Part shown: in pieces, positions 1 to 45,376 of the stretch | Layout of the letters: every line of letters begins with the position of its first letter | How positions within the stretch are numbered: the stretch's first letter is position 1 | Virus record (IMG/VR): IMGVR_UViG_3300029714_000015 | Reading direction: 5' to 3' (one strand) | Origin: a virus | DNA length: 45,376 nt | Notes under the pieces: generated by a model | Told to the model about the DNA's origin: nothing | Databases searched by the model: none | Seen by the model: the letters and a program-made list of their open reading frames with translations, nothing else | Translations under genes and position numbers: made by a program

Positions 1-108
1 CATAACTCTTTTCTTTTTTATTCCCGGGAAACCGCCCGGTCGATCATCTTTGATATTGCAAATATAAGCACTTTGTTTTAATTACCAAAACTTTTAACCA
101 TTTTTTGT
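1..108 (-). promoter_or_regulatory. Conserved promoter/leader cassette, copy A. The same physical element as 45269..45376 if the contig is circular. Read on the minus strand it has a -33 TTTG, a 19-nt spacer, a TATATTTG -7 box, a leader hairpin CCGGG-N6-CCCGG, an A-rich RBS region and an ATG (cat at 1-3).
   Basis: 100-bp element repeated at 4450, 10940, 38807 and 45269 with about 97% identity. Fits the Bacteroides sigma-A promoter consensus TTTG-N19-21-TAnnTTTG. The ttcccgggaa palindrome and the ccggg/cccgg stem are seen directly in the sequence. Confidence 0.6.
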
Positions 109-758
109 TCTCCGTTTTTATTTGCCTCATCATATATTTTTTGTTTTAATTCTATTATACCTAATTCTACTAATGGCTCAACGCATTTAAAGAGTGCTCT
201 AACGTCTTCTATTGCATTATGCGCCTCAAAACTTTCTCCCGGAAATAACTTTGTATAAAGCTCATCTAACTTTGGGTATTTGTTCGGTTTGCCATTCGGA
301 TAACGTGCGCCAACAAATTTAATGGTACTTTTCATTGTATCTATACGTTTTCCCTTAAACAATGCCTTTTCCGCTTTTTCTTCATAATATTCGCGCCCCA
401 TTACACGCAAAATCATCGCTTTAATAATCGAGGTGTCAAAATAAATATTATGCCCAATAAGCAAATAAGCGTTATTACAATCGTCTAAAAATTCGTCTAT
501 TATTTCAGAAAATTGTACCCCCTCTCTTAATGCTCTCTCGGTTGTTATGCCGTGTATTTTTACTGTTTCGGGGGGTATTATCCAATTTTTAGGGTATATA
601 ATATAATTACGCTCTTTACCATTAAAAGACCATGCCAATTGTACTATATTGGGGAAAGTTATAAAATCGGTTTCCCATTTCTGCCCTTTTATTGGTATTC
701 CGGTTGTTTCGCAATCAAACACACAAATGTTTGATAAATCTATATTTCCCATAATCAA
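78..758 (-). CDS. DnaQ-like DEDDh 3'-5' exonuclease
   Basis: Exo I FDCETTG, Exo II GHNIYFD, Exo III HNAIEDV. 226 aa. The stop codon lies inside cassette copy A. Confidence 0.8.
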   Translation of the reverse strand: MIMGNIDLSNICVFDCETTGIPIKGQKWETDFITFPNIVQLAWSFNGKERNYIIYPKNWIIPPETVKIHGITTERALREGVQFSEIIDEFLDDCNNAYLLIGHNIYFDTSIIKAMILRVMGREYYEEKAEKALFKGKRIDTMKSTIKFVGARYPNGKPNKYPKLDELYTKLFPGESFEAHNAIEDVRALFKCVEPLVELGIIELKQKIYDEANKNGEQKMVKSFGN

Positions 759-1186
759 ATAGTATTAGGATCATCGATAAATAAATAAAATTCCTCGGCT
801 GCCAGTTGTTTTAATGTCTCTATATGTTCGATTAATTCGGCATTGCTTAACTCGCTAATCTCCCTTAACCGTGCTTCATATTTCCCGGCATCATTTACCC
901 ATTCTTCCAACATTATAGGAGAATATTCTCGCAATCTTTGTTCTGTCTGTTTTTCTGTTAATCGTTCTCCATTATCCAAAAATGCAGACTTAAACATTGG
1001 CACGATGTAATTATAGTAATATCCGCGTAACGCTGCCGATGTTCCGGGATTGCTAACTATAAAACGTGCTATAACCTTTTTGCCGGCGTGCATTGCAAAG
1101 AATTGTTTTAATTCTCCCATATACATAGATAACGCCCCGTTGTTGTTAATAACTCCGGTTGCGCATATTTCTTTCTTTTTCATCAA
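755..1186 (-). CDS. Hypothetical protein
   Basis: 143-aa ORF in series with its neighbours, with a 4-nt overlap to the downstream gene. Confidence 0.5.
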   Translation of the reverse strand: MMKKKEICATGVINNNGALSMYMGELKQFFAMHAGKKVIARFIVSNPGTSAALRGYYYNYIVPMFKSAFLDNGERLTEKQTEQRLREYSPIMLEEWVNDAGKYEARLREISELSNAELIEHIETLKQLAAEEFYLFIDDPNTI

Positions 1187-2753: not shown

Positions 2754-4166
2754 TTATTGTTTTTCTGAATATTCCTCTATAATTAAATCTTCTTGCCCTC
2801 TTTTAACTTCCTCTATAAAGCCTTGAAACCCGTTTTTTTTCGCGATTTCTATAATTGTTTTTAGCCGTTTTTCGCCTAAACTTTCGCCCCGGGCTATTCT
2901 AAATACCTTAACTGTTGGATTGCTCGCAATTATTAGCTTCGTTGCGACTTCCATTATTTGCGAATCAGACACTTTCCCAGCAATAAACGGTACTCCATTT
3001 AACTCTAATCCCTCATCTGTAAACGATAATCCAGTAATGGGCAATTTAGATGTAGATATAAGTGTTTCACGTTCGGAAAGTAACCCATTTATTTTATCCT
3101 CTAATATATCGACTTCTTTTACCTTATCTTCTTTTATTTTCTTCTTTGATAAGAAATCCTCGACTTTGGCGTTCATTTTGTTGTGTTCTTCCGCCTCGCG
3201 TATCTGCTCGGCAATATTAACCTTTTCCAGATCGTTTTTATCATACTCCGCTAACCATTTATCCGCGTTATTTTTACGTGTCTCTAAATCATTTTTTTTG
3301 TTTTCGATCTCGGCCAAACGATCTTTATAAGACCTCTCAACAACCTTACTATTATCGTCGAATCTCTTTAATATTTCTTGATAATCTCTTTCCGCTTTTT
3401 TGCGCTGTTTGTCTATATCTCTCATAGCTTCTTTATATTCTTTCTCGGCGCACGAAAGAAGTACCGGTATTTCCTCTAATTGTTTTATACGTTCTTCTCT
3501 TGCACTTCTCACCGTTTTTGCCTTTTCCAAAAGTTGCGCATTTAGCCGTTGTTCTTTTATTAAAACGGAAATATCTCGCGGTTCTGCATACTTTTGCAAG
3601 TCATTCGTATTTAGCCCTTTTTCCGCCGCCGAACATATTGCCGAATATGTTTTTATCTCTCTATTTAAATCGGTTCTTTCTTCTTTTAATTGAACAACAT
3701 TTTTATCTATTTCGTCGATGCGATTTCGGACATCGATAGGCAATAAAGATTTTACGACATTTATTTGTCTCCGCCTACCCTCTGCCGTTTCCGACCAACG
3801 GGAAAATTCCACAGCGTCATAATCGGTATATCCAAAAACACTTTGCAACATCGATAAATTATCTGAACGAACACCGGTTGTTTTCTGTTTTATTGTCAGT
3901 GTTCCGCGTGGATTAGCTTTTGTAAAACGCAATTCAACTTCATATTCTTCCCCGTCATCGCCCACAATCATTTTTGCAAATCCTTTGTTTTCGCCATTTC
4001 TTAAAACAGAATCACGATTACCGGTAAGCAATGCGCCAATGGCTTTTAACACCGTCGATTTCCCCAACTCATTATCACCAGTAATGAAATAAACATTACC
4101 GCTAAAATCGGCGTTTAATTCTTTAATTACTTGGAAGTTGACCAACTCTAATTTCTTTACTATCAT
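2754..4166 (-). CDS. SbcC/SMC/RecF-like AAA ATPase with central coiled-coil
   Basis: N-terminal Walker A FITGDNELGKSTVLKAIG, a long K/E-rich coiled-coil region, and a C-terminal ABC-like region. 470 aa. Confidence 0.55.
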   Translation of the reverse strand: MIVKKLELVNFQVIKELNADFSGNVYFITGDNELGKSTVLKAIGALLTGNRDSVLRNGENKGFAKMIVGDDGEEYEVELRFTKANPRGTLTIKQKTTGVRSDNLSMLQSVFGYTDYDAVEFSRWSETAEGRRRQINVVKSLLPIDVRNRIDEIDKNVVQLKEERTDLNREIKTYSAICSAAEKGLNTNDLQKYAEPRDISVLIKEQRLNAQLLEKAKTVRSAREERIKQLEEIPVLLSCAEKEYKEAMRDIDKQRKKAERDYQEILKRFDDNSKVVERSYKDRLAEIENKKNDLETRKNNADKWLAEYDKNDLEKVNIAEQIREAEEHNKMNAKVEDFLSKKKIKEDKVKEVDILEDKINGLLSERETLISTSKLPITGLSFTDEGLELNGVPFIAGKVSDSQIMEVATKLIIASNPTVKVFRIARGESLGEKRLKTIIEIAKKNGFQGFIEEVKRGQEDLIIEEYSEKQ

Positions 4167-4176
4167 AACTTATGTA

Positions 4177-4452
4177 TTATATCATTTCTTGTAAATTATT
4201 CTCTACAATGGCACAAGCTAACACCCATGCTTGTTTTTTACTAACAAAGGCAACTCTAAAAGAAAAAGGATTCATTTTTGATAATATAGTTTCCGCTACT
4301 TTTGCCGCGAAACATTCTATTTTTGCGACCTCGTTTAATACCGTAGCAAGTCTTTCATAACCGAATTGAAAGCCGTCATAATCATATTTTGTATGACTTG
4401 ATGCACCCTCTATTGATCTTGCAACTTTGCATTTTAATTGATAATCATTCAT
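4177..4452 (-). CDS. Hypothetical protein. First gene after cassette copy B.
   Basis: 91-aa ORF whose ATG is the terminal cat of the cassette. Confidence 0.5.
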   Translation of the reverse strand: MNDYQLKCKVARSIEGASSHTKYDYDGFQFGYERLATVLNEVAKIECFAAKVAETILSKMNPFSFRVAFVSKKQAWVLACAIVENNLQEMI

Positions 4453-4548
4453 AACTCTTTTCTTTTTATTCCCGGGAAATCGCCCGGTCGATCATCTTTG
4501 ATACTGCAAATATAAGTACTTTATTTTAATTACCAAAACTTTTAACTA
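4450..4548 (-). promoter_or_regulatory. Conserved promoter/leader cassette, copy B
   Basis: Same element as 1..108 with a few substitutions (aaatcg, atactg, agtact). It ends at the ATG of 4177..4452 and overlaps the stop of the RuvC-like gene. Confidence 0.6.
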
Positions 4549-5094
4549 TTTTTTTGCATCAAATATTTTATAGTGAATTTGATTAGGCAAATTTTGCAAT
4601 ACCCATTCAAAATTATTTTGAAGAACAAAACGGCCAAAATGTAATAATAATAAAGCGTCGCAATTCCATAGAGTAACCTTAACATCAGGATAACAATCAA
4701 TGGCCGCTCTTTGAAATCTTTTTTTTCTATCCTTTCTTTCCTCTCCTTTTACTCTTACCTTTAAGGTGTTTTGCCATTTCATAGGATTAACAAGGACGAA
4801 AGGAATATCACAAACAGATATAACCGTTTTTAATATCTCAAAGTCGGCTAACATTTTTTGAATCCTAAATGCTTTTCCCGTATTATCTTCTATATCATCA
4901 GGGCGTAATTGCACTTTTTCTAAAAAAATAAGCGGATTACAAATACTTGTTATATATTCAAAATATTGCCTTAAATCTAAAATATTAGACGGCATTTTTA
5001 ACACCTCGGTTTTATAGTTAGGTCGCCATACAGCTAAACCGCCGGACTTTCCCGGATCTATTCCTATAATACAATCAATCGTTATTTTTTCCAT
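4546..5094 (-). CDS. RuvC-like Holliday junction resolvase
   Basis: N-terminal GIDPGKSGGLAV motif typical of RuvC/YqgF-fold resolvases. 182 aa. Confidence 0.65.
   Translation of the reverse strand: MEKITIDCIIGIDPGKSGGLAVWRPNYKTEVLKMPSNILDLRQYFEYITSICNPLIFLEKVQLRPDDIEDNTGKAFRIQKMLADFEILKTVISVCDIPFVLVNPMKWQNTLKVRVKGEERKDRKKRFQRAAIDCYPDVKVTLWNCDALLLLHFGRFVLQNNFEWVLQNLPNQIHYKIFDAKK

Positions 5095-5990: not shown

Positions 5991-5998
<8 letters not shown>
5096..5998 (-). CDS. Hypothetical protein
   Basis: 300-aa ORF packed tightly between RuvC and the initiator-like gene. Confidence 0.5.
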
Positions 5999-6815
<817 letters not shown>

Positions 6816-7968: not shown

Positions 7969-8169
7969 CTATTTGTCTTTTAAATCTTTTACACCCAATG
8001 CGACCATTATACCACATATAAATGCAAAAAATAACTGTGAAATGTTCCAAAAAGAACCGATTAAACAAACAATTCCCAACAAGCCAAATACAAGAATTAT
8101 CGTTTTTGCAAACGTTTCATTTGTCATCATAACCAAAAAGATAATTAGGTGTACAATCACACATTTCAC
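7969..8169 (-). CDS. Small hydrophobic protein
   Basis: 66-aa ORF with two predicted TM stretches. It overlaps the upstream HTH gene, so the start is uncertain. Confidence 0.3.
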   Translation of the reverse strand: MKCVIVHLIIFLVMMTNETFAKTIILVFGLLGIVCLIGSFWNISQLFFAFICGIMVALGVKDLKDK

Positions 8170-8350
8170 AAATAACTATTACCCATTCGGGCAAAATTCG
8201 TTTTGTTTTCCCATTACATAAACTTGTCATGTTTACTTGCTGGGTGGCGGTACTCACACCCGGGAATAACCGGGCGGCAATATCCTTTTTAAGGACTTTT
8301 TTTCCATTCGCTGCCGAAAGGGCAATTGCTTCGTTTACTTTTAACTGCAT
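8117..8350 (-). CDS. Small helix-turn-helix DNA-binding protein
   Basis: LKKDIAARLFPGVSTATQQVNMTSL resembles an XRE/Cro-like HTH. Locally GC-richer. Confidence 0.45.
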   Translation of the reverse strand: MQLKVNEAIALSAANGKKVLKKDIAARLFPGVSTATQQVNMTSLCNGKTKRILPEWVIVICEMCDCTPNYLFGYDDK

Positions 8351-8358
8351 AATTATAA

Positions 8359-8838
8359 TTATTTAATAAAACCACAATTTTTACACGTTTTTTCTTCCCA
8401 TAAAGTAGCATATTCAAAGGCCGACAAATAACCGTCTCCGCCTATATTTTTATAATCTCCGTCGGTTATTTCCATTTCTCCGCCACATATAGGGCAATCT
8501 CCATGTCCAAAGAGAACCAGATCAAAAAAAGCGTATATATCATCTTCATTTACATTTAGAATACCAACTGTTTTAAGTATATTTATTATTTCCGAGTTAA
8601 GGACAACTCTAATAAGACAGTCGTAAACACTTTCGCCGTAATTGTCCGGGCAATCCTCTACCATTCTCTGTTGTATTAGTGCACAAACTATTTGTTCTTC
8701 AACAATGGCTATTTCTTTGTTTGCCCTTTGGGCTAAATACTGTAATTGTTCGTTTTTTTTCAGTTTCATAATGATTCGCACTATCCCTGTGCGTAGGCTT
8801 AACGTTGCAAATATATGTATATTATTTTTTATTACCAA
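8359..8838 (-). CDS. Hypothetical Zn-ribbon protein
   Basis: C-terminal CPICGG...CKNCG cysteine pairs. Confidence 0.5.
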   Translation of the reverse strand: MVIKNNIHIFATLSLRTGIVRIIMKLKKNEQLQYLAQRANKEIAIVEEQIVCALIQQRMVEDCPDNYGESVYDCLIRVVLNSEIINILKTVGILNVNEDDIYAFFDLVLFGHGDCPICGGEMEITDGDYKNIGGDGYLSAFEYATLWEEKTCKNCGFIK

Positions 8839-8987
8839 AATATTTTCTTTGTTTTTTATTTTTTTACTATGGAGAAATATTTGTCCTTAATATATTTATT
8901 CCTATATTTGTGCATCTTAATGGCACATTTCTTGCCATTACATAAAATATCCGTCGGCTTTACCTCTTTTCCTGACGGATATTTTTT

Positions 8988-9932
8988 TTATTCCTCAAAC
9001 AACGTTTTAGGACGTTCGTCCGGCAAATATTTTCCCACTTTACTTAATACAAGTCTTAACGCCTCTCTATATGTAACATCGCCATTTTTATAATTCATAA
9101 AACATTCATACGCCTTTGGGTGTAACTTTAAAAGCATCTCAAATCTTGAAACTTTTTCTATATGCGCGCCAAATCCACAAAACATACAACCGGTTCTACG
9201 ATGTCCATTATCGTATAGTTCGCAATACGGGACTTTAAATTTACGCAAGTAATCCCATATATCCGCTTCTGTCCAAATGCTTATTGGATAACTTTCTATA
9301 TGATTATTTTGAAATGAATTGCAACCGCCTCGCCGTATATACTCTCGTTCTCTTAAATTGCTTTCGCCAGCCATAACACCTAAAATCGGCACTTCGCCGG
9401 TCTGTTTATTATACTTTGTAAAAGGCCGTTTTTTTAAATATTCGCAACATTGTTCTGAAATCATAAAAGGCTGTTTTATTAGAAACTGCCAACGATCGGC
9501 AATCTTACCGCTAAGTAACCCTTTACTTTTATCCGTTCCATGTAAGCGAATATAAAGTAACTTTTCGCTCTTGGTTGTTTTGGCTTGGCGTATACTGTGT
9601 GATTGTTCTTTCGATATGAGCGGAAAACCATATTTGCCGATAACTTCCCTTACCGTAATTTCCGGCCGTATTATCGTTACGTTCTCGGTGCTTCTGACAA
9701 AGCGTACTATTTCGGGGTACTCGTTGCCAGTATTGCAAAAAACACCCTTTATATCTCTATTGACAAATCGCCGCACTATATCAAGTAAAACTGTTGAATC
9801 TTTGCCACCAGAAAAAGACACATAGGGAATTTTACCCGTTTTTGCGATAAATGATTCTATTGTTCCAACAGAATGATCTATTTTTTGCGAAAGCGTCCAT
9901 TTTTGCCTATTTTTTAAGTCCTCTATTGTCAT
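8988..9932 (-). CDS. PAPS-reductase family (PP-loop ATP pyrophosphatase) protein with a Cys-rich C-terminus
   Basis: PP-loop VSFSGGKDS. C-terminal cysteines (CCEY, GGCNSF, CMFCGFG) that could ligate a metal or Fe-S cluster. Confidence 0.75.
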   Translation of the reverse strand: MTIEDLKNRQKWTLSQKIDHSVGTIESFIAKTGKIPYVSFSGGKDSTVLLDIVRRFVNRDIKGVFCNTGNEYPEIVRFVRSTENVTIIRPEITVREVIGKYGFPLISKEQSHSIRQAKTTKSEKLLYIRLHGTDKSKGLLSGKIADRWQFLIKQPFMISEQCCEYLKKRPFTKYNKQTGEVPILGVMAGESNLREREYIRRGGCNSFQNNHIESYPISIWTEADIWDYLRKFKVPYCELYDNGHRRTGCMFCGFGAHIEKVSRFEMLLKLHPKAYECFMNYKNGDVTYREALRLVLSKVGKYLPDERPKTLFEE

Positions 9933-10385: not shown

Positions 10386-10613
10386 CTATACTTCTTTTGT
10401 CAATTGTTTTATTAAATTCTTAATACCCCTACCGTCATTTACTGTTTTACCAGTAAACCACCCTGTATATGGATATAAAAGAACAACACTACCCTTATAT
10501 TCAAACTTTAACGTTGAAATATTTACCCTTTCTACCATAAACCCTAATTTAGATAAAACATTTATTGCATACTTTACCCTATTTTCTTGTAGAAGATCCC
10601 TTAAATAATCCAT
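10386..10613 (-). CDS. Hypothetical protein
   Basis: 75-aa ORF, in series. Confidence 0.4.
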   Translation of the reverse strand: MDYLRDLLQENRVKYAINVLSKLGFMVERVNISTLKFEYKGSVVLLYPYTGWFTGKTVNDGRGIKNLIKQLTKEV

Positions 10614-10942
10614 TATACGATATTTATTAAGTTAGCTTTTTTAAAACATCTGTACTCGCTCTTTTCTGTGTCAAAATATACCTGTATAGTATTATTTTTC
10701 TTTCTGTTGTCGTTTTTTGTTTCCGGCAACAAATCATCTCTCAATGTCCCGAACGCTTCTCTAATAGAACCGTCTACTTTTTGAAAGTAAAATTTTACGA
10801 TTCTTGCTTTTAATGCTCGATGTAACTTTATATTTGCCCATGCGCATTTTAATGCTTTTGATAAGTCATAACCATTTTGTCTAACAAATTGCCACGCCAA
10901 AATCATTACCTCTTTTAATGCACTACGTTTTTCGGTACTCAT
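10613..10942 (-). CDS. Hypothetical protein. Start set at MSTEKR, the ATG supplied by cassette copy C.
   Basis: The longer ORF continues into the cassette, and the N-terminal extension MLIFAISKM.. is the cassette read through. The same artefact appears at 38627..38878. Confidence 0.45.
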   Translation of the reverse strand: MSTEKRSALKEVMILAWQFVRQNGYDLSKALKCAWANIKLHRALKARIVKFYFQKVDGSIREAFGTLRDDLLPETKNDNRKKNNTIQVYFDTEKSEYRCFKKANLINIV

Positions 10943-11040
10943 AACTCTTTTCTTTTTATATTCCCGGGAAACCGCCCGGTCGATCATCTTTGATATTGCA
11001 AATATAAGCACTTTGTTTTAATTACCAAAACTTTTAACTA
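10940..11040 (-). promoter_or_regulatory. Conserved promoter/leader cassette, copy C
   Basis: Identical core. CAAATATA (10999-11006) is the reverse complement of the TATATTTG -7 box. CAAA (11026-11029) is the reverse complement of the -33 TTTG. The spacer is 19 nt. Confidence 0.6.
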
Positions 11041-11057
11041 TTTTTTTGCGTTAAAGC

Positions 11058-11101
11058 CCCAAAAAAGAAAAAATAAGGCCGAAGTAAAAAATACATCGGC
11101 C
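11058..11101 (-). terminator. Putative intrinsic terminator at the end of the late (structural/lysis) unit
   Basis: GGCCGA (11077-82) pairs with TCGGCC (11096-101). A 16-nt A-rich run on the plus strand follows, which is a U-tract on the minus-strand RNA. It sits between the last late gene and cassette C. Confidence 0.4.
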
Positions 11102-12122: not shown

Positions 12123-12691
12123 TTTAATATATTTTTGATTGTTAAATAATGAATATTCGCTATTTTCCTACGCCCTACTTCGCTCATTATAAAACGGCAA
12201 TCCTTTTCGGTGTCCATAAAGAAATTTTCGGACAAAACGGCGGGCATTTTAGTATTGCGTAATATATAGAAATTGCTCTCTTTGTCTGGGTCGCCGTCCG
12301 TCATATCCTTTCTTATCTTCCAACCGTTAAATTCTTTCTCCGCAAAGCTATACAACATTGTGGCTATTTCATCGGCTTTCGTTTGGCCGGGCGTTGTATA
12401 ACATTCCCAGCCAGTACCGCCGCCGGCATTTGCATGTATGCTAAATAAAACACATTCGCCGACACTATCACATATATTATTTGCTCTAATACATCGTTCT
12501 TGTAGCGTTATATCTTCCAATTCTGGTACTAAAACATGATATTTTATATTGTCAGCATCTAACATTACAGAAATGCGTTTAACAATATCCCTGTTAAACT
12601 CGTATTCAAATAATTGCGAACCGTCGCACCAAATTGGCGAACGTTTCCCCGGTGTTTCTTTACCGTGCCCGTTGTCAAGTATTATTATCAT
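12119..12691 (-). CDS. N-acetylmuramoyl-L-alanine amidase (Amidase_3-type endolysin)
   Basis: LDNGHGKETPG and FSIHANAGGG motifs, characteristic of Amidase_3. Confidence 0.75.
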   Translation of the reverse strand: MIIILDNGHGKETPGKRSPIWCDGSQLFEYEFNRDIVKRISVMLDADNIKYHVLVPELEDITLQERCIRANNICDSVGECVLFSIHANAGGGTGWECYTTPGQTKADEIATMLYSFAEKEFNGWKIRKDMTDGDPDKESNFYILRNTKMPAVLSENFFMDTEKDCRFIMSEVGRRKIANIHYLTIKNILK

Positions 12692-13223
12692 TTTCTTTTT
12701 CTTCCTCCTTGTTTTTATCGGTAAATTCTTCGTTTATCTCCTCGCCGTGTTCCCGTTCGACACGCTCGACGATGCGCTGCACGTTTTCGGGCAATGCGCG
12801 TTTGAACTCGAAGCGTATCACGTGGTAGATGATGCGCAGGGCCTTGTTTGTGGGGTAGGCATGTATGAGGTTGCGGAAGGCGTTCTGCGCGTAGACGTAC
12901 ATGAAGACGTAGGTCAATGATTTCATCACGATGAGCGAGGCGGTGTCGTCGCCGCAATTCTGCATGATCGAATAGATGGTTTCCGAGATGATCAGGTATA
13001 GCAGCAGTTCGGCCAGCGCGTTCTTGAACTTCCGGAAGGAGAAGTTTCGGCACCGGACGACGGATACTCCATCGGCCCGCATGCCTGCCCATACGTTGAA
13101 GGCGAACATGGTGACGAGTGCGAAGATGAATCCTTTCGTCGGGGTGAGGAATGCCAGCACGGGGCTGAGGGCCGACACGGCAATGATGCGCCATTGTTCC
13201 CAGTTGAATATTTTGTCCATCAT
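12675..13223 (-). CDS. Holin-like membrane protein. A chimera: the body is GC-rich and the last ~15 codons are AT-rich.
   Basis: Three hydrophobic helices and a charged K/E-rich C-terminus. Immediately upstream of the amidase. The composition changes at about 12720. Confidence 0.45.
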   Translation of the reverse strand: MMDKIFNWEQWRIIAVSALSPVLAFLTPTKGFIFALVTMFAFNVWAGMRADGVSVVRCRNFSFRKFKNALAELLLYLIISETIYSIMQNCGDDTASLIVMKSLTYVFMYVYAQNAFRNLIHAYPTNKALRIIYHVIRFEFKRALPENVQRIVERVEREHGEEINEEFTDKNKEEEKENDNNT

Positions 13224-13442
13224 TGTTTACTGTGTTTATCGTTGTGTAAAGTTGTTATTCCGAGCGAGGGCGTAAGCCCGACGAGGAATCCCATGTTCAC
13301 CCTCTCTTTCCCCTTATGTCATTCCGAGCGTATGAGAGGAATTTTCGAGCAAACAAGAGCAAAAGAAAAACAGGTTTTCATTTTGCCGAGTGCCGCAGAA
13401 AATCAGCTCCGCTGAATCTCACACCGTGAGAGTGCTTGGGTT

Positions 13443-13988
13443 TCATACGAAGTCGTACCAATGAATGGTATCGGCATCGCATTTGAGGTTCAGCGAGTGG
13501 CGGTAACGATCCCGACGGTATTTCCACAGCCACAGGCGTGGAATCACACAGCCGGTGCCGCCATGCAGGTTTTTCTCTTTCAACCGCTCCGGACCGTGCG
13601 GGTTGTAGGTGGTGTTCCAGTCGCGTTTGTCGCTGACGTATAGGCAGTGCGGGTGTTCCCGGGTAAGGAACATGCCTTTGAGCCGGTCGAGGTCATCGGC
13701 AGCAGACTTCCGTCCGCCCATGACGTTTTCAAGGACGAGGCGGTAGCAGCACCCTGCGTTTTCGAGGAGGGCGACAATCTCAGGAACACAGGCCTTGTAC
13801 CCGACCCACCCGTGGCAGGCCACGAGGCCGCCCTTGCCGTCGAAACGCACGCGGAGGTCAAATGCCCGTGCCCCGCCATCTATCTGTCCCTCGACGGTCG
13901 TCCGCTGGCAGCGGGCGAAAGGTTGTAAGAACCGCATGTACCACCGACGGACGGGGTACGCGGTAAATGTGTTATGCGAGCCGTACAT
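13443..13988 (-). CDS. SHN-motif protein, GC-rich paralog B. Possible PLC-like phosphodiesterase.
   Basis: 181 aa, the same length as 2206..2751 and about 45% identical to it. About 60% GC against a backbone of about 33%. Confidence 0.35.
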   Translation of the reverse strand: MYGSHNTFTAYPVRRWYMRFLQPFARCQRTTVEGQIDGGARAFDLRVRFDGKGGLVACHGWVGYKACVPEIVALLENAGCCYRLVLENVMGGRKSAADDLDRLKGMFLTREHPHCLYVSDKRDWNTTYNPHGPERLKEKNLHGGTGCVIPRLWLWKYRRDRYRHSLNLKCDADTIHWYDFV

Positions 13989-34736: not shown

Positions 34737-35360
34737 CTACTCGCGTTTTAAATTATCTTGTAATTTATCCACAACCGAAAATAATAAATCGTCCGGAATA
34801 GATTTTATATCATATTGTGGAAGATCTTCATTTCTATTACCATTTGGAATATCTATTTTTATCGGCGCATCAAAGCCTAACATTTTTGCGCGTCGTTGCT
34901 GAACATTTAAAAGCAAATCTAAAAATTTAGGATTGCCCGGTGTCGTCTCTGTTGCTTCTTCAACATTCGTACAATACACTTTATCATTTCGCCCGCTTAA
35001 TTTGCGCATTTTACTTTTACTTTTTTCCTTTTTTGATTTTTCCCACGCGCACCATAATTCAACTTCTATTTTATCAAGCTTGCGTAATTCTTGCGTTATA
35101 TAATCATCTATATTATCCATTCGCTCACGTTTCCAATCTATAAGCAAATTTTTAATATCGATAAATATTGCTTGTGCGGTTATTGTATAATTAGAGCCAT
35201 TCTCCGCATTTACTTTGTTCAATTCTTCTGCAATCTCCCTATATGTATATCCACGCAAAAAAAGATTAGAACAAAACAATACATCTCTATCGTATTGTGC
35301 GCGTGTCCGTTTACATAATTTAGGTTGGCGACCTCTTTTCCTTTTATGCTCATATTCCAT
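34737..35360 (-). CDS. Putative terminase small subunit / DNA-binding protein (start at MEYEHKRK)
   Basis: Basic N-terminus KRKRGRQPK. Positioned directly upstream of TerL. Confidence 0.3.
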   Translation of the reverse strand: MEYEHKRKRGRQPKLCKRTRAQYDRDVLFCSNLFLRGYTYREIAEELNKVNAENGSNYTITAQAIFIDIKNLLIDWKRERMDNIDDYITQELRKLDKIEVELWCAWEKSKKEKSKSKMRKLSGRNDKVYCTNVEEATETTPGNPKFLDLLLNVQQRRAKMLGFDAPIKIDIPNGNRNEDLPQYDIKSIPDDLLFSVVDKLQDNLKRE

Positions 35361-35448
35361 ATTAAAGCTTTTTATATGTAAATAATTTATATAACAAATA
35401 TAGTGCCTTAATCGCACATTAAGACACTATATAATAAACATTGACCGA

Positions 35449-36300
35449 TTATATTTCTATGCCCGTAATATCTTCAAATATATCCGCATCGAAGTTAGGC
35501 AACGTTTTAAACAATTCCTTTTGATCATCTGTAAGCTCCGACCAAAGATTAGCCCACGCTTCTTTATAAGTATAAACACGCAAATAGCCGTAATTAACAT
35601 AAGCATCTGGATTATTTTCTTTTTCTTCGTCGGACATATCGTCCCAATCGATCCAGTCAGTTAAAACAAATAAATCCTGAACAATACGATATACCTTATG
35701 TCTGTACCAATCCTCCCAAGTAAAAGAAGATTCTTTATTAAAGAAAAATATTTTATCGCCTCTTTTTCTATTGCAAAAAACGCCGCTGTTTCGGTAGCCG
35801 CTGTTTAGGTCGCCGCTGTTTCGGTCGCCGCTGTTTCGGTCGCCGCTGTTTAGGTCGCCGCTGTTTCGGTAGCCGCTGTTTAGGTCGCCGCTGTTTCGGT
35901 AGCCGCTGTTTAGGTCGCCGCTGTTTCGGTCGCCGCTGTTTCGGTAGCCGCTGTTTCGGTCGCCGCTGTTTCGGTAGCCGCTGTTTCGGTCGCCGCTGTT
36001 TCGGTCGCCGCTGTTTCGGTAGCCGCTGTTTCGGTCGCCGCTGTTTCGGTAGCCGCTGTTTAGGTCGCCGCTGTTTCGGTCGCCGCTGTTAAAAAGACCT
36101 GTATTTTCTCTCCCTGTAAAAAACAATTCCGGGCGTTCACATTCTCTTATCCAATCGGCATTAATAGGATAAAAATCTTCTCTGTCTTTTATCACATTGG
36201 CAAGTTCTTCATAGGTTGCCACATTGCGTACCTCATCGCCAAATTCTTTGTTCCATTCATAAGCCCCAATAATTTGGTCTTTTAATTCTTCTAAGTTCAT
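35449..36300 (-). CDS. Protein with about 21 tandem pentapeptide units NSGDR/NSGYR/NSGDL
   Basis: Encoded by the 15-bp tandem array at 35771..36090. Acidic/aromatic flanks. Confidence 0.5.
   Translation of the reverse strand: MNLEELKDQIIGAYEWNKEFGDEVRNVATYEELANVIKDREDFYPINADWIRECERPELFFTGRENTGLFNSGDRNSGDLNSGYRNSGDRNSGYRNSGDRNSGDRNSGYRNSGDRNSGYRNSGDRNSGDLNSGYRNSGDLNSGYRNSGDLNSGDRNSGDRNSGDLNSGYRNSGVFCNRKRGDKIFFFNKESSFTWEDWYRHKVYRIVQDLFVLTDWIDWDDMSDEEKENNPDAYVNYGYLRVYTYKEAWANLWSELTDDQKELFKTLPNFDADIFEDITGIEI
35771..36090. repeat. About 21 copies of a 15-bp tandem repeat (CGCCGCTGTTTCGGT / AGCCGCTGTTTAGGT variants)
   Basis: Seen directly. Three unit variants are interspersed. Confidence 0.9.
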
Positions 36301-38420: not shown

Positions 38421-38444
38421 ATTTACAATATTCAAGTTAATACT

Positions 38445-38711
38445 TTATTGCTGATTTTCATCCCTATATTGTTCTATAAAAAATCGCTTCTGTTGTTCTA
38501 TCTCATTTCGTAATTCTTCCTCGGTTGGCATATAGGTCATATACTTTGTAGCGTAGAGCTGCTCATTGTCATGAAGTACCGAATATCGTGCAATAGTGTT
38601 GTCCGTATCCGTACAAAGTAGAACACCTATGGTCGGCGGATATTTTTTTTGATTAAATCCTTTGCAGGCTTCAATGAGTAGAAAATATATGTATCGTTCC
38701 ATGTTTCGCAT
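38445..38711 (-). CDS. Hypothetical protein
   Basis: 88-aa ORF that overlaps the 60-aa ORF upstream of it. One of the two may be spurious. Confidence 0.3.
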   Translation of the reverse strand: MRNMERYIYFLLIEACKGFNQKKYPPTIGVLLCTDTDNTIARYSVLHDNEQLYATKYMTYMPTEEELRNEIEQQKRFFIEQYRDENQQ

Positions 38712-38809
38712 TCTACATCATACTCCCATTTTTTTAAGTCCTTATTAAATTTATCCCCTATATATTTATGACATATAGGCTCGTTAAAATAAATAGTGTA
38801 AGTTTTCAT
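38627..38809 (-). CDS. Small hypothetical protein (start at MKTYT, the ATG supplied by cassette copy D)
   Basis: Same cassette-to-ATG arrangement as at the other copies. Confidence 0.35.
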   Translation of the reverse strand: MKTYTIYFNEPICHKYIGDKFNKDLKKWEYDVECETWNDTYIFYSLKPAKDLIKKNIRRP

Positions 38810-38936
38810 AACTCTTTTCTTTTTATATTCCCGGGAAACCGCCCGGTCGCTCATCTTTGATATTGCAAATATAAGCACTTTGTTTTAATTACCAAAACTT
38901 TTAACTATTTTTTTTGTTCTCCGTTTTTATTTGCGT
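38807..38936 (-). promoter_or_regulatory. Conserved promoter/leader cassette, copy D. It shares an extra ~25 bp with copy A.
   Basis: Identical core. One substitution (gtcgctcat) in the leader. Confidence 0.6.
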
Positions 38937-39428
38937 TTTTATGTATTCCCACCCCTTTTTATCAATTATTAAATTACGCGGATATTCCATTATTTCACCC
39001 TTTGTGTACACCAAATTATAAATGCCTAATTGCCCTTTTATGGGCACTTCTACTACCTTGCGCGGATTCCGCAATAACCAGCCATACCCATTTGTAATAT
39101 TAGGCCGCTTATCTCTCGGAATACGTGTTTTATCCCAGTCGTCGATAGTAAAATCTTTTATCGGCTTGACATCATATAATTCGACTAATCCTAATGTTAC
39201 ACCGCTTTCCATACCCGGTATTACCGGTTTTGAAGAAGAACAAATAAGTATATCACCACGATAAGAAGTATTTCTACTTCTTACTTCTATCGACTTAACA
39301 CCATATACAAGACCCTCACAATCCATATATGCGGGCGTTACTATATCGTTTGCGTATGGCTGTTTTACTGTTAATGCTCGCCAACGATCATGTTTTACCG
39401 GATCGTAGCAACTATTTTTAAACTGCAT
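38901..39428 (-). CDS. ASCH-domain protein (start at MQFKNS, after the hexamer repeat)
   Basis: LTVKQPYANDIV....KSIEVRS resembles the ASCH beta-barrel N-terminus. The upstream ITITIT.. translation is the hexanucleotide repeat read in frame. Confidence 0.5.
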   Translation of the reverse strand: MQFKNSCYDPVKHDRWRALTVKQPYANDIVTPAYMDCEGLVYGVKSIEVRSRNTSYRGDILICSSSKPVIPGMESGVTLGLVELYDVKPIKDFTIDDWDKTRIPRDKRPNITNGYGWLLRNPRKVVEVPIKGQLGIYNLVYTKGEIMEYPRNLIIDKKGWEYIKTQIKTENKKNS

Positions 39429-39624
39429 CGTTATCGTTATCGTTATCGTTATCGTTATCGTTATCGTTATCGTTATCGTTATCCATAGGCGGAGCAAAAC
39501 CTATTTTTTGCCTCACTTCTTTTGTCTCGAAAACGACAATAACGGTATCTTTTTCTGTACGAACACCGATTAATTCGCTGTCCTCGGGTATTATCATAGT
39601 AATTTCAAATTTCTTTCTCATCAA
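39418..39624 (-). CDS. Small protein ending in a (DN)9 tail encoded by the hexamer repeat
   Basis: 68-aa ORF coupled to the SSB gene by a 4-nt overlap. Confidence 0.3.
   Translation of the reverse strand: MMRKKFEITMIIPEDSELIGVRTEKDTVIVVFETKEVRQKIGFAPPMDNDNDNDNDNDNDNDNDNDAV
39429..39484. repeat. (GTTATC) hexanucleotide microsatellite, about 9.3 units. On the minus strand it is GATAAC.
   Basis: Seen directly. It lies at the junction of the 68-aa ORF and the ASCH gene. Confidence 0.9.
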
Positions 39625-40131: not shown

Positions 40132-40479
40132 TTACTCTTTAAATTTTACACAATCAAACAAATACTTTTTTTTATTATCCGACCAACCGGCCGCTATATT
40201 CAAAGCAACCCTATCATTATCATGTACAAATTCGCAATAAAATTCAGAGATACTAATATGTTCTACAATACGCACCAATTTGCCAATCAAATAAAAACGG
40301 AAACCATAATAACCGCTATTTTCCCCTACAAATATTATTCGGCGAATTTCATTTACTTGTGGCAAATTTTCTCTCTGTGGGACTTTATTAGGGCTATAAC
40401 GGCTTTCTCTACTTATAAAATCCCTTTGTATAGAACGCCGGGAAATAGCCCTAAAATCCGTATTTTTTTTTACCCTCAT
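40132..40479 (-). CDS. Hypothetical protein
   Basis: 115-aa minus-strand ORF. Chosen over the overlapping plus-strand ORF because every other gene is on the minus strand. Confidence 0.3.
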   Translation of the reverse strand: MRVKKNTDFRAISRRSIQRDFISRESRYSPNKVPQRENLPQVNEIRRIIFVGENSGYYGFRFYLIGKLVRIVEHISISEFYCEFVHDNDRVALNIAAGWSDNKKKYLFDCVKFKE

Positions 40480-40913
40480 CTATATAACATTTGATATTCT
40501 GTTTTTAACAACTCTATTAATTTCATATTTGAATTATATATCCGCATATTTTTTCTATCGCCATTTTCCCAACGGTTGTGTGCTTCAAAACAAAGAATAT
40601 TTATATTTCTCGGATCTGTCGCCATTTCGGGAAATGCTCCTCGGGTCAAAATATGAGAGCAATATACAGAAGAATAATTATATAACGGGCGTAATGTTTC
40701 CTCGCAATAATGCGGCTTGTTTGCCCAAACCCAGCGGAAAAATTTCTCATTCGATTGTGCGGTTTCTATAACGCCACGCCCAAATAATTCTTGTTGGATT
40801 TCTACACGTAAAAATATATCCAAAGAAAAACGTTTGTCTAATAGAGGGGAATACCCTCTATTAATGACAAACAAATATTCTTCTCTATTGGTTATTTTTA
40901 TCGGCTCAATCAT
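40476..40913 (-). CDS. HNH-like endonuclease candidate
   Basis: CSH...NINILC..EAHNRWENG. The spacing is compatible with an H-N-H motif. Confidence 0.35.
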   Translation of the reverse strand: MIEPIKITNREEYLFVINRGYSPLLDKRFSLDIFLRVEIQQELFGRGVIETAQSNEKFFRWVWANKPHYCEETLRPLYNYSSVYCSHILTRGAFPEMATDPRNINILCFEAHNRWENGDRKNMRIYNSNMKLIELLKTEYQMLYR

Positions 40914-41590: not shown

Positions 41591-42177
41591 CTTTTGGAAA
41601 ATTCCTCATCTTTAAATGCCTCGGCAAGTCCAGTTATTTGTTTTAATCTTAAAACTTCGTCCGCGTCCATGCCTAATTCTATACCAATTCTCGCATTTGT
41701 CCAATTATGCTTTTTAAGCATTGTAATTAACTTTGCAGATAATTCTACTTGATGCGTACCCCGGGCAAGATTATGCCTTACCGTAGAAGTTATACGATCT
41801 TCTATCGATTTATTTAACCGACTTACCGGAATATATCCATACAAACTATTATTTATATCCTTATCTTGTTGTATTACTGTCGTTCTATGGAAACCGTCTA
41901 CTACTGTGTAAGGATAATCTTTATTATCGGGCGTATCACAAACTACAATCGGCATTGTTACACCGTCCTTTTTAATGGATAGTTTTAACAGCTTCATTTC
42001 CGGCGGTGCAACCTTATTCGGATTATAATCATTTCCTATGACTTTATTTGCAGGTACTAATTGAACATTTAGTACTGGGTGATTTATACCCAACCAATCA
42101 TATAGTTCCTGTGTAATCGTATTAAATACTTTTACCTTATCTTCAAAAGGCATATCTTTTAAAACATTTTCAATCAT
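41581..42177 (-). CDS. ParB/Sulfiredoxin-like nuclease domain protein (IbrB-like)
   Basis: VVDGFHRTTV (ParB box-II-like GxxR). 198 aa. 4-nt overlap with the IbrA-like gene. Confidence 0.65.
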   Translation of the reverse strand: MIENVLKDMPFEDKVKVFNTITQELYDWLGINHPVLNVQLVPANKVIGNDYNPNKVAPPEMKLLKLSIKKDGVTMPIVVCDTPDNKDYPYTVVDGFHRTTVIQQDKDINNSLYGYIPVSRLNKSIEDRITSTVRHNLARGTHQVELSAKLITMLKKHNWTNARIGIELGMDADEVLRLKQITGLAEAFKDEEFSKSWI

Positions 42178-44891: not shown

Positions 44892-44932
44892 AAACTCTTT
44901 AATTGGATAAAAGAAGGGTAATTACCCTTCTT

Positions 44933-45271
44933 TCATTTACCTATTATAAACATTTCACTTTCTTGTTTGCTTGTAAATGGTATTTGATGCGTTTTAGATT
45001 TAAAATCCACTTTCGACAATTCAAATTGCTTATCTGTAAAGAACCTCACTTCATAAGCCGCCGATAAATTATTTTGTTGAATATTTTTTACATAATCTAT
45101 CGCGCGCTCGCTTGTCATAAAATGTTCAAATACTTTGCTTGTATCAATGCAATTTCTTTGTGTATAACCGCTTCTAATGACTTTTAAATCTTTTTTCGGT
45201 ATCTCTTTCCCGTTTACGCTTTTAAATTCAACCCATGTGATTTTGTACGCTGAAATTTCATTTGTATTCAT
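44933..45271 (-). CDS. Hypothetical protein. First gene after cassette copy A/E.
   Basis: 112-aa ORF whose ATG is the terminal cat of the cassette. Confidence 0.45.
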   Translation of the reverse strand: MNTNEISAYKITWVEFKSVNGKEIPKKDLKVIRSGYTQRNCIDTSKVFEHFMTSERAIDYVKNIQQNNLSAAYEVRFFTDKQFELSKVDFKSKTHQIPFTSKQESEMFIIGK

Positions 45272-45376
45272 AACTCTTTTCTTTTTTATTCCCGGGAAAC
45301 CGCCCGGTCGATCATCTTTGATATTGCAAATATAAGCACTTTGTTTTAATTACCAAAACTTTTAACCATTTTTTGT
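45269..45376 (-). promoter_or_regulatory. Conserved promoter/leader cassette, copy E. 108/108 identical to 1..108, consistent with circular closure.
   Basis: Direct comparison, including the distinguishing aaccatttttt variant found only in these two copies. Confidence 0.6.

Follow-up and report, generated by a model that had tools for sequence, protein, structure and literature searches.

What does a phage gain from carrying one block of sequence, running from promoter through leader hairpin to start codon, at four positions in its genome, each ahead of a different gene? Gene regulation in the phages of Bacteroidota, which dominate the human gut virome, is almost unstudied, and in their hosts transcription relies on an unusual sigma factor and translation starts without Shine-Dalgarno pairing. 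The window analyzed here, the whole 45,376-nucleotide stretch of IMG/VR virus record IMGVR_UViG_3300029714_000015, is the genome of a PDS1-like Bacteroidales siphovirus (~45.27 kb) with every gene on the minus strand. It is circular or terminally redundant; two independent IMG/VR contigs run uninterrupted across the closure (window 786..1 / 45376..). PDS1, the nearest cultured relative, has been described as lytic (PMC10773633); two papers on PDS1 describe no phage promoters, hairpins or phage transcript maps.

A direct-repeat search of the window returned a single repeat family, at 1-108, 4449-4556, 10941-11048, 38808-38915 and 45269-45376. The first and last members are 100% identical and thus leave four distinct loci, as an initial annotation of this DNA had proposed. 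The four copies measure 107–109 nt, with gapped pairwise identities of 92.6–98.2%. The value of about 97% quoted in that annotation holds for cassettes A, B and C but not for D, the most diverged copy (~93-94%; loop CGATTT). The 23-nt hairpin core occurs five times in the window, against 0.00 expected from shuffles. The cassettes are:

45269..45376, minus strand: cassette A, repeated at 1-108 via the terminal redundancy; promoter 45357..45327, hairpin 45307..45292, ATG 45271..45269.
38807..38915, minus strand: cassette B; promoter 38896..38866, hairpin 38846..38831, ATG 38809..38807.
10940..11048, minus strand: cassette C, upstream part; A-rich block 11048..11030, -33 TTTG 11029..11026, -7 TATATTTG 11006..10999.
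The same cassette C, minus strand, downstream part: hairpin CCGGG-CGGTTT-CCCGG 10979..10964, A-rich initiation region 10963..10943, ATG 10942..10940.
4450..4556, minus strand: cassette D; promoter 4537..4507, hairpin 4487..4472, ATG 4452..4450.

All four follow one order: an A-rich block, TTTG-N19-TATATTTG, 19 nt, the hairpin CCGGG-CGGUUU-CCCGG, ~21 A-rich nt, and the ATG. The sequence TTTG-19 nt-TATATTTG is exact in 4/4 cassettes, and the promoter pattern has 12 matches in the window where 2.2 are expected. The Bacteroidota sigma-A (sigma-ABfr) consensus comprises a -33 TTTG, a -7 TAnnTTTG and a spacer of ~19 nt (PMC7366714). As judged from the letters, the putative promoters of the cassettes, together with that of a fifth element described below, match this consensus exactly, and relatives keep the entire promoter block, including the conserved AAAATAAAAGA upstream of the -33 element; this fits the earlier promoter call. 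We infer promoter activity and the position of the transcription start from this match; the 19-nt distance to the -7 box then predicts that the hairpin stem begins at ~+14, behind a single-stranded 5' tail of ~13-14 nt. The 5-bp hairpin is present in the MFE and centroid folds of every leader, the stretch before the ATG is unpaired, and the folding energy is ordinary (z about -0.1 to -1.1). In Bacteroides thetaiotaomicron, 5' UTR lengths peak at 23 nt, with A enriched at -6 and at -11 to -15 (PMC7366714). The cassette leader carries A at the same positions, which fits the A-rich initiation region without a Shine-Dalgarno sequence that had been suggested for it. Rfam gave 0 matches in the whole window at gathering thresholds, and around cassette C only sub-threshold, chance-level matches, with nothing meaningful at E up to 10.

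Every copy ends at the ATG of a small ORF (112, 60, 109 and 91 aa in the order A to D), and these share no protein family, in agreement with the annotation. The first genes, the fifth promoter and the candidate ends of transcription are as follows:

44933..45271, minus strand: ORF A1, 112 aa, followed by an accessory block that includes SNF2-like and PAPS-reductase/DUF3440 genes.
38627..38809, minus strand: ORF B1, 60 aa, followed by a YhcG remnant and Dcm methyltransferase, HATPase_c_3 and pentapeptide-repeat genes.
10613..10942, minus strand: ORF C1, 109 aa, with a WYL_2 / Sm-like SH3 domain.
4177..4452, minus strand: ORF D1, 91 aa, followed by a conserved RecN/SMC-like ATPase gene at 2754..4166.
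8767..8839, minus strand: fifth promoter and leader; TTTG-N20-TATATTTG at 8839..8808, class 2 hairpin CGCAC-AGGGATA-GTGCG at 8793..8777, then 7 nt and the ATG at 8769..8767.
11058..11101, minus strand: intrinsic terminator, GGCCGA...TCGGCC and a T-run, closing the lysis/late block directly upstream of cassette C.
8940..8990, both strands: bidirectional terminator hairpin, ATATCCGTC..GACGGATAT, with a minus-strand TTTTAT and a plus-strand T8.
44907..44932, minus strand: hairpin AAGAAGGGTAATTACCCTTCTT then TTTAT, directly after ORF A1.

These features revise the proposal that the cassettes define four transcription units. The window holds at least five sigma-A-type promoters; the fifth had been overlooked, its leader hairpin differs from that of the cassettes, and it heads an ORF at 8359..8769 followed by a conserved small HTH gene (8117..8350). 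No terminator lies upstream of cassettes A, B and D, each of which contains the stop codon of the preceding gene; upstream transcripts should therefore read through these cassettes, and the units are not isolated. The cassette B block itself continues into packaging and structural genes. The terminator at 11058..11101 is real, but the unit it precedes was mislabeled as late, since cassette C heads an early-type block. Nor is it the only upstream terminator, since a second (~8981..8940) closes the cassette C block and precedes the fifth promoter. Directly behind B1, C1 and D1 a scan for a hairpin plus T-run (filter -8 kcal/mol) found no terminators. The hairpin at 44907..44932, noticed by sequence inspection only, failed the -8 kcal/mol filter; it may attenuate or terminate transcription after this first gene of cassette A.

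The hairpin is shared well beyond this genome. The form ACGA-CSGGG-CGUUUU-CCCSG (class 1) occurs in phages of Bacteroides, Parabacteroides, Alistipes and Elizabethkingia, the pattern ACGANNGGGCGTTTTCCC has matches in at least 120 IMG/VR stretches, and 6/6 sequenced relatives carry 3-5 promoter-plus-hairpin elements per genome. Among 119 unique contexts, 84 hairpins lie 18-19 nt after TTTG-N17-21-TAnnTTTG, and the remaining 35 have no promoter and sit between cistrons. The distance from hairpin to ATG is 18-23 nt in nearly all 119, promoter-bearing or promoter-less, and the element invariably lies on the coding strand. The spacing is simple, with 19 nt between -7 box and hairpin and ~21 nt between hairpin and ATG in the cassettes, and offers a testable handle on leaders in bacteria that do not use Shine-Dalgarno sequences. 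Matches to the hairpin motif in bacterial genomes are chance-like, except for phage-like contigs of ~42-46 kb binned into MAGs; the motif as a host-genome element was accordingly rejected.

On balance, we consider the cassette to be probably a portable expression start whose hairpin acts at the RNA level as a boundary or stabilizer, and which has been reused as a patch of homology for recombination; we hold this reading with modest confidence. A host sigma-A promoter of the Bacteroidota type, preceded by the A-rich block, would start a transcript that opens with ~13-14 unpaired nucleotides and a hairpin (5-bp G+C stem, conserved hexaloop) and continues through ~21 nt of A-rich, unstructured leader without a Shine-Dalgarno sequence to the ATG. 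Whether placed behind a promoter or a cistron, the hairpin would stand as far upstream of the start codon as a standard Bacteroides leader is long. There it could serve as a 5' boundary and stabilizer, shielding the message and giving ribosomes a defined, unpaired region to land on, with the conserved loop and 5' flank leaving room for a specific binding partner. The role of stabilizer or boundary is, as we infer it, the most likely one for the hairpin. It has precedents in the 5' stabilizers of the Escherichia coli ompA 5' UTR, Bacillus phage SP82 and ermC, and in intercistronic protective hairpins, which likewise place a small stable hairpin before an unstructured ribosome-binding stretch. 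Unlike in ompA-type stabilizers, however, the predicted 5' tail of the cassette transcript is longer, and loop and flank are conserved rather than just the stem. Two features count against stabilization: a tail of this length exceeds what classical 5' stabilizers tolerate, and the folding energy is unremarkable. As a unit, the cassette could become a strong expression part for Bacteroides engineering.

The loop CGUUUU and flank ACGA are exactly conserved, even in the Elizabethkingia phage, whereas in relatives the loops of nearby intercistronic hairpins vary and are GNRA- or UUCG-like. Such conservation goes beyond the need of a generic structural hairpin, and favors either a specific ligand or pairing between flank and loop. 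The hairpin with its loop and flank may form an operator for a trans-acting RNA-binding factor. It could serve translational repression or activation at the border of the ribosome-binding region, as the operators of T4 gene 32 or gene 43 do, or antitermination of the lambda nut kind, with the factor loaded onto RNA polymerase just behind early promoters and behind the first cistron. We regard this as possible, if rather unlikely, and the same grade applies to its consequence, that the identical cassettes constitute one co-regulated post-transcriptional regulon. The near-invariance of loop and flank across phages of four host genera speaks for such an operator, as does the absence of the motif with its context from bacterial chromosomes, which points to a system specific to the phage family. 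Its placement, just after promoters and just after the stop codon of a first gene, mimics lambda nutL/nutR, which, like it, form a 5-bp G+C stem capped by a small conserved loop in nascent RNA and occur in phages with long same-strand operons; the hairpin followed by TTTAT directly after ORF A1 also suits antitermination. In contrast to nut, the hairpin has a hexaloop (CGUUUU) in place of a GNRA-like pentaloop and keeps a fixed, tight distance to the next start codon, for which antitermination has no need. Moreover, no boxA-like conserved block is evident beyond ACGA, and few downstream terminators would need read-through, B1, C1 and D1 having none directly behind them. The RNA-operator reading also comes without a candidate protein. 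A tie between the hairpin and the WYL_2/Sm-like protein encoded by C1 was rejected because the protein is missing from 5/6 relatives that bear the hairpin. At the WYL_2 loci of other phages (n=80) the leaders differ from that of the cassette, and the homolog in Riemerella phage RAP44 has an unrelated upstream hairpin and a different leader.

The flank could itself be a partner of the loop. The flank AACG is complementary to the loop CGUU, and this flank-loop helix is paired in 93% of cells, with one pair changing on both sides (A-U to U-A or U·G), in the window lineage only. The complementarity suggests an H-type pseudoknot, which, with the unstructured leader, would resemble the operator of the T4 gene 32 mRNA, where a compact structure also lies upstream of an unstructured, A-rich initiation region. 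The cassette structure is much smaller than that operator and would serve several operons in place of one autoregulated gene; in one close relative, a G·G mismatch interrupts the putative helix at all four copies. A bolder version, which we find doubtful, is that the class 1 hairpin, possibly pseudoknotted with its ACGA flank, is the operator by which a large family of gut Bacteroidales phages runs a post-transcriptional regulon that has so far escaped recognition. Standing exactly one leader length before the AUG, the hairpin would be read by a phage RNA-binding protein or by the ribosome, which would thereby set, time or position SD-independent initiation on all cassette-led operons simultaneously, with gene conversion keeping the operators identical.

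Both the boundary role and an RNA operator place the hairpin in RNA, an option raised in the initial annotation that covariation supports. In 107 of 119 phage contexts the free outer positions of the stem are complementary (CC/GG in 80, CG/CG in 27), compared with ~14% among the ~80 matches listed for bacterial genomes, and lower when MAG-binned phage-like contigs are left out. In class 1, 96% of cells are paired against at most 79% in slid controls, a signal that derives essentially from one covarying pair (CG<->GC) and few independent events. In class 2, 100% are paired against at most 51% in slid controls, and 4/5 pairs have changed on both sides. Of the single mismatches within the stem's internal positions, 6/6 read as G·U on the sense strand; these wobbles and the compensatory changes together indicate RNA structure.

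The same data weigh on whether CCGGG-N6-CCCGG works instead in double-stranded DNA, as an operator or roadblock bound by a dimeric regulator of the phage, for instance the HTH protein encoded at 8117..8350, with the promoter-less copies serving as stoperators. We consider this improbable, as we do its corollary that the four promoters are repressed from about +14 to +29. The 16-bp dyad is of operator-like size and lies just downstream of the promoter, and the HTH protein (77 aa) is kept in 6/6 hairpin-bearing relatives at 64-72% identity. Stoperators are asymmetric double-stranded DNA repressor sites of temperate phages such as mycobacteriophages L5 and Bxb1. They resemble the intergenic hairpin copies in being short, orientation-specific sites near the start and stop codons of same-strand operons, but for the hairpin the evidence favors RNA pairing. 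Both class 1 stem variants (CCGGG and CGGGG), which would be half-site variants of an operator, coexist in single genomes and are always compensated. In class 2 the stems are fully different (CGCAC, CCCGG, CCGGG) while the asymmetric loop stays, the opposite of half-site recognition. The sense-strand G·U changes likewise oppose a double-stranded DNA site, the GNRA-/UUCG-type loops of the relatives' neighboring hairpins are stability motifs specific to RNA, and a fixed distance to the ATG has no rationale at the DNA level. Nothing marks the HTH protein as a ligand of the hairpin, contrary to the earlier suggestion that it may bind there.

In addition to starting expression, a portable cassette of this kind would supply homology. 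Of the genes directly behind cassettes A, B and D, nearly all lack homologs in the six relatives, as do two genes of the cassette C block; the products of these non-conserved genes are PAPS-reductase-like proteins, a pentapeptide-repeat protein, a HATPase, a Dcm methyltransferase and an SNF2-like protein. The cassettes flag the places where accessory genes have been inserted, and many of these genes specify DNA-modification enzymes with a possible role against host defense. Within the window, the cassettes are 93-98% identical to one another, compared with 58-85% within PDS1 and TCUEAP2. At the GATGA[T/G]C site the window reads T,G,T,T, one close relative has G at 4/4 sites and another has T at 4/4, and the AAAA[C/T] site behaves likewise; the copies evolve in concert in the window lineage. 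In the wider family, the junctions of gene replacements and of one deletion fall at the hairpin. Among relatives, one promoter and hairpin precedes different first genes, and one first gene follows different promoters; in contig L139 the promoter hairpin is fused to the leader of the second gene, a deletion between two hairpins. Concerted evolution and hairpin junctions together support the proposal that the cassette is a homology block for recombination. The phage recombination system would use the shared 20-100-nt block as its patch: gene conversion in the window lineage would have homogenized four promoter sites to one sequence, and recombination at the hairpin would, across the family, have swapped or deleted the genes immediately behind, mostly accessory DNA-modification and other non-conserved genes. 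The predicted cassette-bounded gene shuffling in related phages is borne out at this family-wide level but not within the window's own lineage, where the two large indels relative to close relatives, at 36450-38686 (behind B) and 41815-44847 (behind A), end inside genes, near rather than at the cassette borders.

Concerted evolution and junctions at the hairpin could also arise if the repeat had no expression function of its own and were a selfish or neutral recombination patch, or a recombination-nuclease site, spread by gene conversion. Such a patch would accord with the speculation, made for the PeSLs discussed below, that a recombination protein binds GGGG...CCCC stems (PMC2839356). We find this very improbable, since the element always lies on the coding strand, keeps fixed distances to the ATG and the -7 box, matches the host promoter consensus exactly, and occupies promoter sites that are orthologous across the family even at the 58-85% identity level. 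Terminal inverted repeats and target-site duplications are absent at the cassette borders, and a mobile element was rejected on this basis.

The initial annotation had likened the cassettes to PeSLs, the promoter-early stem-loops of T4-like myoviruses (Arbiol et al. 2010, PMC2839356; Comeau et al. 2014, PMC4122927). Both are short repeated units that combine a G/C stem-loop with a strong promoter for host sigma and AT-rich sequence upstream, and both precede small, poorly conserved ORFs and act as homology patches for gene insertion, deletion and replacement. The architecture differs, however. A PeSL places a terminator stem-loop upstream of its promoter (PMC2839356), in the order stop codon, terminator stem-loop, promoter, Shine-Dalgarno sequence, ATG, whereas the cassette runs from promoter to leader hairpin to A-rich leader to ATG, its hairpin lying 19 nt downstream of the -7 box and lacking a U-tract. 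The cassette hairpin is not a terminator and also occurs between cistrons in promoter-less form, the cassette promoter belongs to the Bacteroidota sigma-A type, the phage is a 45-kb siphovirus type, and there are 4-5 copies per genome compared with ~60 for PeSLs. The element is equally no 3' terminator of the upstream genes, the outcome named earlier as refuting the proposal, since on the sense strand no U-tract follows the hairpin, unlike in the window's real terminators. The cassette is therefore PeSL-like in evolution and not in architecture. The reading we credit least is a genuine PeSL composite, its stem-loop ending or attenuating upstream or antisense transcription and its promoter starting it anew: G-run/C-run stems in intergenic spaces beside strong promoters and non-conserved ORFs do recall PeSLs (PMC2839356), and in relatives a moderately T-rich stretch follows the hairpin on the antisense strand, but a hairpin placed after the -7 box cannot shield its promoter from transcripts arriving from upstream, the real terminators pass the hairpin plus T-run scan, and the wobble pairs favor the sense strand. 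The cassettes nonetheless extend the PeSL idea, of regulatory cassettes as linkers of modular gene exchange, to another type of phage and another host phylum; internally they are built differently, and their concerted evolution is clear.

Some further candidates in the window were considered separately. The inverted repeat within the HTH gene (8259..8274), put forward as a related hairpin, does exist, but it is absent from the hairpin list of its PDS1 homolog and is one of ~15 chance-level 5-bp GC hairpins in the window, and was rejected as a related site. A plus-strand sRNA candidate (8916-8990) has an 8-nt complementarity to the cassette leader (CUCUUUUC / GAAAAGAG) with a duplex energy no better than shuffles, and was likewise set aside; the cassette leaders were not at the top of its target ranking. 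No late-promoter class was established. PDS1 gp43, annotated as a phage sigma factor, was rejected for the late genes because profile searches with seven homologs against PDB and Pfam gave only weak HTH matches; the position of the gp43 homolog just before the large terminase suggests that it is the small terminase.

Four near-identical cassettes, each comprising a promoter, a leader hairpin and a start codon, were located in the window:

45376..45269 (also 108..1), minus strand: cassette A
38915..38807, minus strand: cassette B
11048..10940, minus strand: cassette C
4556..4450, minus strand: cassette D

Repeat comparison confirmed that each minus-strand copy ends at the ATG of an unrelated small ORF (112, 60, 109 and 91 aa for A, B, C and D, respectively), and no family common to these four ORFs was found. 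Pairwise identity among the four distinct copies spans 92.6-98.2%; the ~97% of the initial annotation is fair for A, B and C, but D is at about 93-94%. Every copy follows the same order of A-rich block, TTTG, 19 nt, TATATTTG, 19 nt, hairpin, approximately 21 A-rich nucleotides and ATG, which bears out the Bacteroides-type promoter, GC hairpin and A-rich pre-ATG stretch first read from the sequence. The hairpin is CCGGG-CGGTTT-CCCGG, with the loop CGATTT in D. Its core occurs five times in the window and never in shuffles, and the promoter pattern is matched 12 times against 2.2 expected. For every leader, MFE and centroid predictions alike contain the 5-bp hairpin and the pre-ATG stretch is predicted to be unpaired; the folding energy of the leaders is in itself unremarkable. 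The A-rich upstream part of the cassette (e.g. 11048-11020, minus strand) also has stops in all three frames (TAG, TAA, TAA), so the cassette closes any upstream ORF joined to it; the genes preceding D, B and A each end on a different one of these stops.

All long ORFs of the genome, which has a G+C content of 37%, are encoded on the minus strand. Bases 1-108 recur unchanged as 45269-45376, and two independent IMG/VR contigs cross this junction without a break, which identifies the window as a phage genome of 45,268 bp that is circular or terminally redundant. Neither tRNA genes nor Rfam matches at gathering score were found in it. The nearest sequenced relatives share its gene order at ~65-68% nucleotide identity over alignable parts, and comprise Parabacteroides phages PDS1 and PD491P1, Bacteroides phages C1_85S2P and BKO1-3, Alistipes phage AS73P1, and Elizabethkingia phage TCUEAP2.

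The cassettes had been proposed to head four separate transcription units, a division contradicted by a fifth promoter and by the distribution of terminator-like sites (a hairpin followed by a T-run, found at four intergenic places):

~27342, minus strand: terminator-like site after the major capsid gene
~23920, minus strand: weaker terminator-like site
11101..11058, minus strand: terminator-like site before cassette C
~8981..8940, minus strand: terminator-like site before the fifth promoter
8839..8808, minus strand: fifth promoter, identified by the promoter pattern and overlooked in the initial annotation

No such site lies upstream of cassettes A, B or D, and the stop codons of the genes preceding these three fall within the cassettes themselves, which argues that the cassettes act as internal restart points on read-through transcripts, not as four insulated units. 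The terminator once thought unique to a "late unit" does precede cassette C, but another precedes the fifth promoter, and the block that C heads is of early type (WYL_2 protein, PAPS reductase). The fifth promoter is next along the strand, with recombination and replication genes behind it; it is followed by a hairpin unlike that of the cassettes (CGCAC-AGGGATA-GTGCG; class 2, the cassette type being class 1), then 7 nt and an ATG at 8769..8767.

The sole plus-strand unit of the genome is a candidate small RNA gene at 8880-8990. Its promoter reads TTTG (8880)-N19-TATATTTG (8903-8910), with a predicted start near 8916 and two hairpins, the second a terminator with U8 (8983-8990); the predicted fold has an MFE of -24.8 kcal/mol (z = -8.1). 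Two close relatives carry the 109-nt stretch at 100% identity, with flanks that are ~93% identical; blastn-short found no copy in distant relatives, and a search for pairing with the cassette leader gave nothing convincing. Elsewhere, the conserved coding region of ORF 40476..40913 contains a strong hairpin (-17.7 kcal/mol; 40822-40870, minus strand) with TTTTTCTTT after it, which may act as an internal attenuator or have arisen by chance.

A profile built from the four cassettes detected three to five promoter-hairpin elements in every relative, together with hairpin-only copies, giving the hairpin consensus ACGA-CSGGG-CGUUUU-CCCSG. A palindrome in the HTH gene, formerly suggested as a related site, has no counterpart in the PDS1 hairpin list. 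Scanning IMG/VR with ACGANNGGGCGTTTTCCC returned at least 120 stretches, mostly in contigs of ~43-46 kb, and 119 unique contexts from the matches listed were analysed. A sigma-A-type promoter lies 18-19 nt before the hairpin in 84 of these; the remaining 35 have no promoter, and most directly follow the first gene's stop codon. With or without a promoter, 18-23 nt separate the end of the hairpin from the following ATG in nearly all cases, a distance matching the commonest 5' UTR length in B. thetaiotaomicron, 23 nt (PMC7366714). At -6 and at -11 to -16 the leader carries A, in keeping with the enrichment reported for these positions in Bacteroidota (PMC7366714). In G+C-richer relatives, many other intercistronic spacers feature a G+C hairpin 16-22 nt before the ATG, with variable loops including GAAA- and GCAA-types. 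Across 596 Gb of bacterial genomes the same 16-base pattern gave chance-like matches, and those with promoter context were only ~46 kb phage-like contigs binned into MAGs, which argues that the motif is a property of the phage family, not of host genes. We found no description of promoters or leader hairpins of these phages in the literature. At WYL_2 loci of many unrelated Bacteroidota phage contigs (L014-L091), a TAnnTTTG promoter lies upstream of the gene together with another conserved leader, possibly an element in its own right, that carries repeated GATACGAAAC / ATCGAAAC motifs.

Of the 119 phage contexts, 107 show complementarity between the two stem positions that the scan pattern left free (CC/GG in 80, CG/CG in 27, both states occurring within single genomes), versus only ~14% of the roughly 80 bacterial matches listed, and fewer once phage-like contigs are removed.

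Stem pairing in the two hairpin classes
Class 1: 96% of cells paired; two-sided changes at 1 of 5 pairs (CG<->GC); best slid control 79% paired
Class 2: 100% of cells paired; two-sided changes at 4 of 5 pairs; best slid control 51% paired

Class 1 includes three G·U wobbles, and the asymmetric loop of class 2 is conserved across three unrelated stems. All six single mismatches in the interior of the stem read G·U on the sense strand, and C·A cases (6/6) are confined to the outermost pair. Variable stems around a conserved loop, sense-strand wobbles and GNRA-/UUCG-type neighbours are predicted by an RNA hairpin and not by a dyad DNA operator; because independent events are few, support for RNA is good but not conclusive.

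We regard the cassette as a real, conserved regulatory element and its hairpin, whose role we infer, as a candidate new cis-acting RNA motif of gut Bacteroidales phages. Its promoters would be used by the host sigma-A holoenzyme, with transcripts probably starting ~6-7 nt after the -7 box, so that the hairpin would span roughly +14 to +29. The hairpin would delimit, at its 5' side, a leader of standard length that is unstructured and SD-less, protecting the message, including downstream cistrons after processing, and insulating the ribosome landing region. Loop and flank are conserved exactly, which suggests a specific partner in addition, either a protein or the hairpin's own flank via a pseudoknot; we consider this reading rather unlikely. 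The ACGA flank can pair with the loop (AACG/CGUU), and the window lineage shows two-sided changes (AUCG/CGAU in D, AUCG/CGGU in A and C); as one close relative is mismatched at all four copies, such a pseudoknot can be proposed only tentatively. Readings of the hairpin as a DNA operator, a PeSL-type terminator or an antisense terminator, or of the repeat as a purely selfish recombination patch, are disfavoured, each being opposed by position, strand-specific pairing or the missing U-tract.

The same four cassettes are present in two close relatives, themselves 93-99% identical to the window, and the few polymorphisms in these cassettes follow genome, not site. At GATGA[T/G]C the bases are T, G, T and T in the window, G at 4/4 sites in one relative and T at 4/4 in the other; AAAA[C/T] is likewise genome-specific. 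Cassettes within the window are 93-98% identical, versus 58-85% in PDS1 and TCUEAP2. The promoter sites of C, D and the fifth promoter are orthologous family-wide, B has counterparts in AS73P1 and TCUEAP2, and A is extra. Gene conversion has therefore overwritten existing promoters with one sequence in the window lineage, and one copy was added.

In the wider family, differing first genes occur behind one promoter and hairpin, with the junction exactly at the hairpin's 3' end, and one first gene is found behind differing promoters. In contig L139, the promoter hairpin is fused to the second gene's leader, a deletion between two hairpins. Comparison of related phages thus recovers gene shuffling of the anticipated kind, with junctions at the hairpin, and documents the cassette as a recombination linker as well. 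Of the window's genes immediately behind A, B and D, almost none has a homolog in the six relatives, and the same applies to two genes of the C block; among the products of these non-conserved genes are a SNF2-like protein, two PAPS-reductase-like proteins, a Dcm methyltransferase adjoining a YhcG nuclease remnant, a HATPase_c_3 protein and a pentapeptide-repeat protein. The YhcG/DUF1016 PDDEXK nuclease persists only as a C-terminal remnant (38445-38711) beside the complete Dcm-type cytosine methyltransferase (37130-38413), and a 2.2-kb segment of this region (36450-38686) is missing from two close relatives. A 15-nt tandem repeat of 20.7 copies (35781-36090) in gene 35449..36300 (Pentapeptide_2, Pfam) is explained by the encoded protein itself being made of pentapeptide repeats.

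The closest analogue in evolutionary behaviour is the promoter-early stem-loop (PeSL) of T4-like phages (PMC2839356, PMC4122927). The PeSL likeness drawn in the initial annotation holds for gene exchange at junctions but not for architecture, since the defining terminator stem-loop of PeSL lies upstream of the promoter. Lambda nut sites resemble the hairpin in position, and 5' stabilisers and the T4 gene 32 operator in design; we treat these likenesses as possible leads, not memberships.

Several further features of the genome were observed. Gene 34737-35417 is homologous to a PDS1 gene annotated as "RNA polymerase sigma factor" (PHROG 645, "RNase E"); both annotations look doubtful, because profile searches give weak HTH matches only and its location immediately before the large terminase gene points to a small terminase subunit. 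A lysis-proximal, G+C-rich non-coding gap of 219 nt (13224-13442, minus strand), between ORFs 13443..13988 and 12675..13223, is unusual for a 37% G+C genome; it has no Rfam match and a folding z of -1.1. A perfect hexanucleotide microsatellite, (ATCGTT)x9.5 (39427-39483), lies at the start of the ASCH-domain gene 38901..39497 or slightly upstream of it, and might serve as a contingency tract prone to slippage. Finally, ORF 5991..6815, a homolog of the PDS1 gene annotated as "replication initiator A family protein", contains an origin-like array (6342-6535): an inverted repeat with an 11-bp stem (6342-6366), then (ATT)x17.7 (6363-6415), and lastly a 24-nt unit in 3.8 perfect copies (6421-6511), each comprising the palindrome GTTGCAnnnTGCAAC followed by a G-run.
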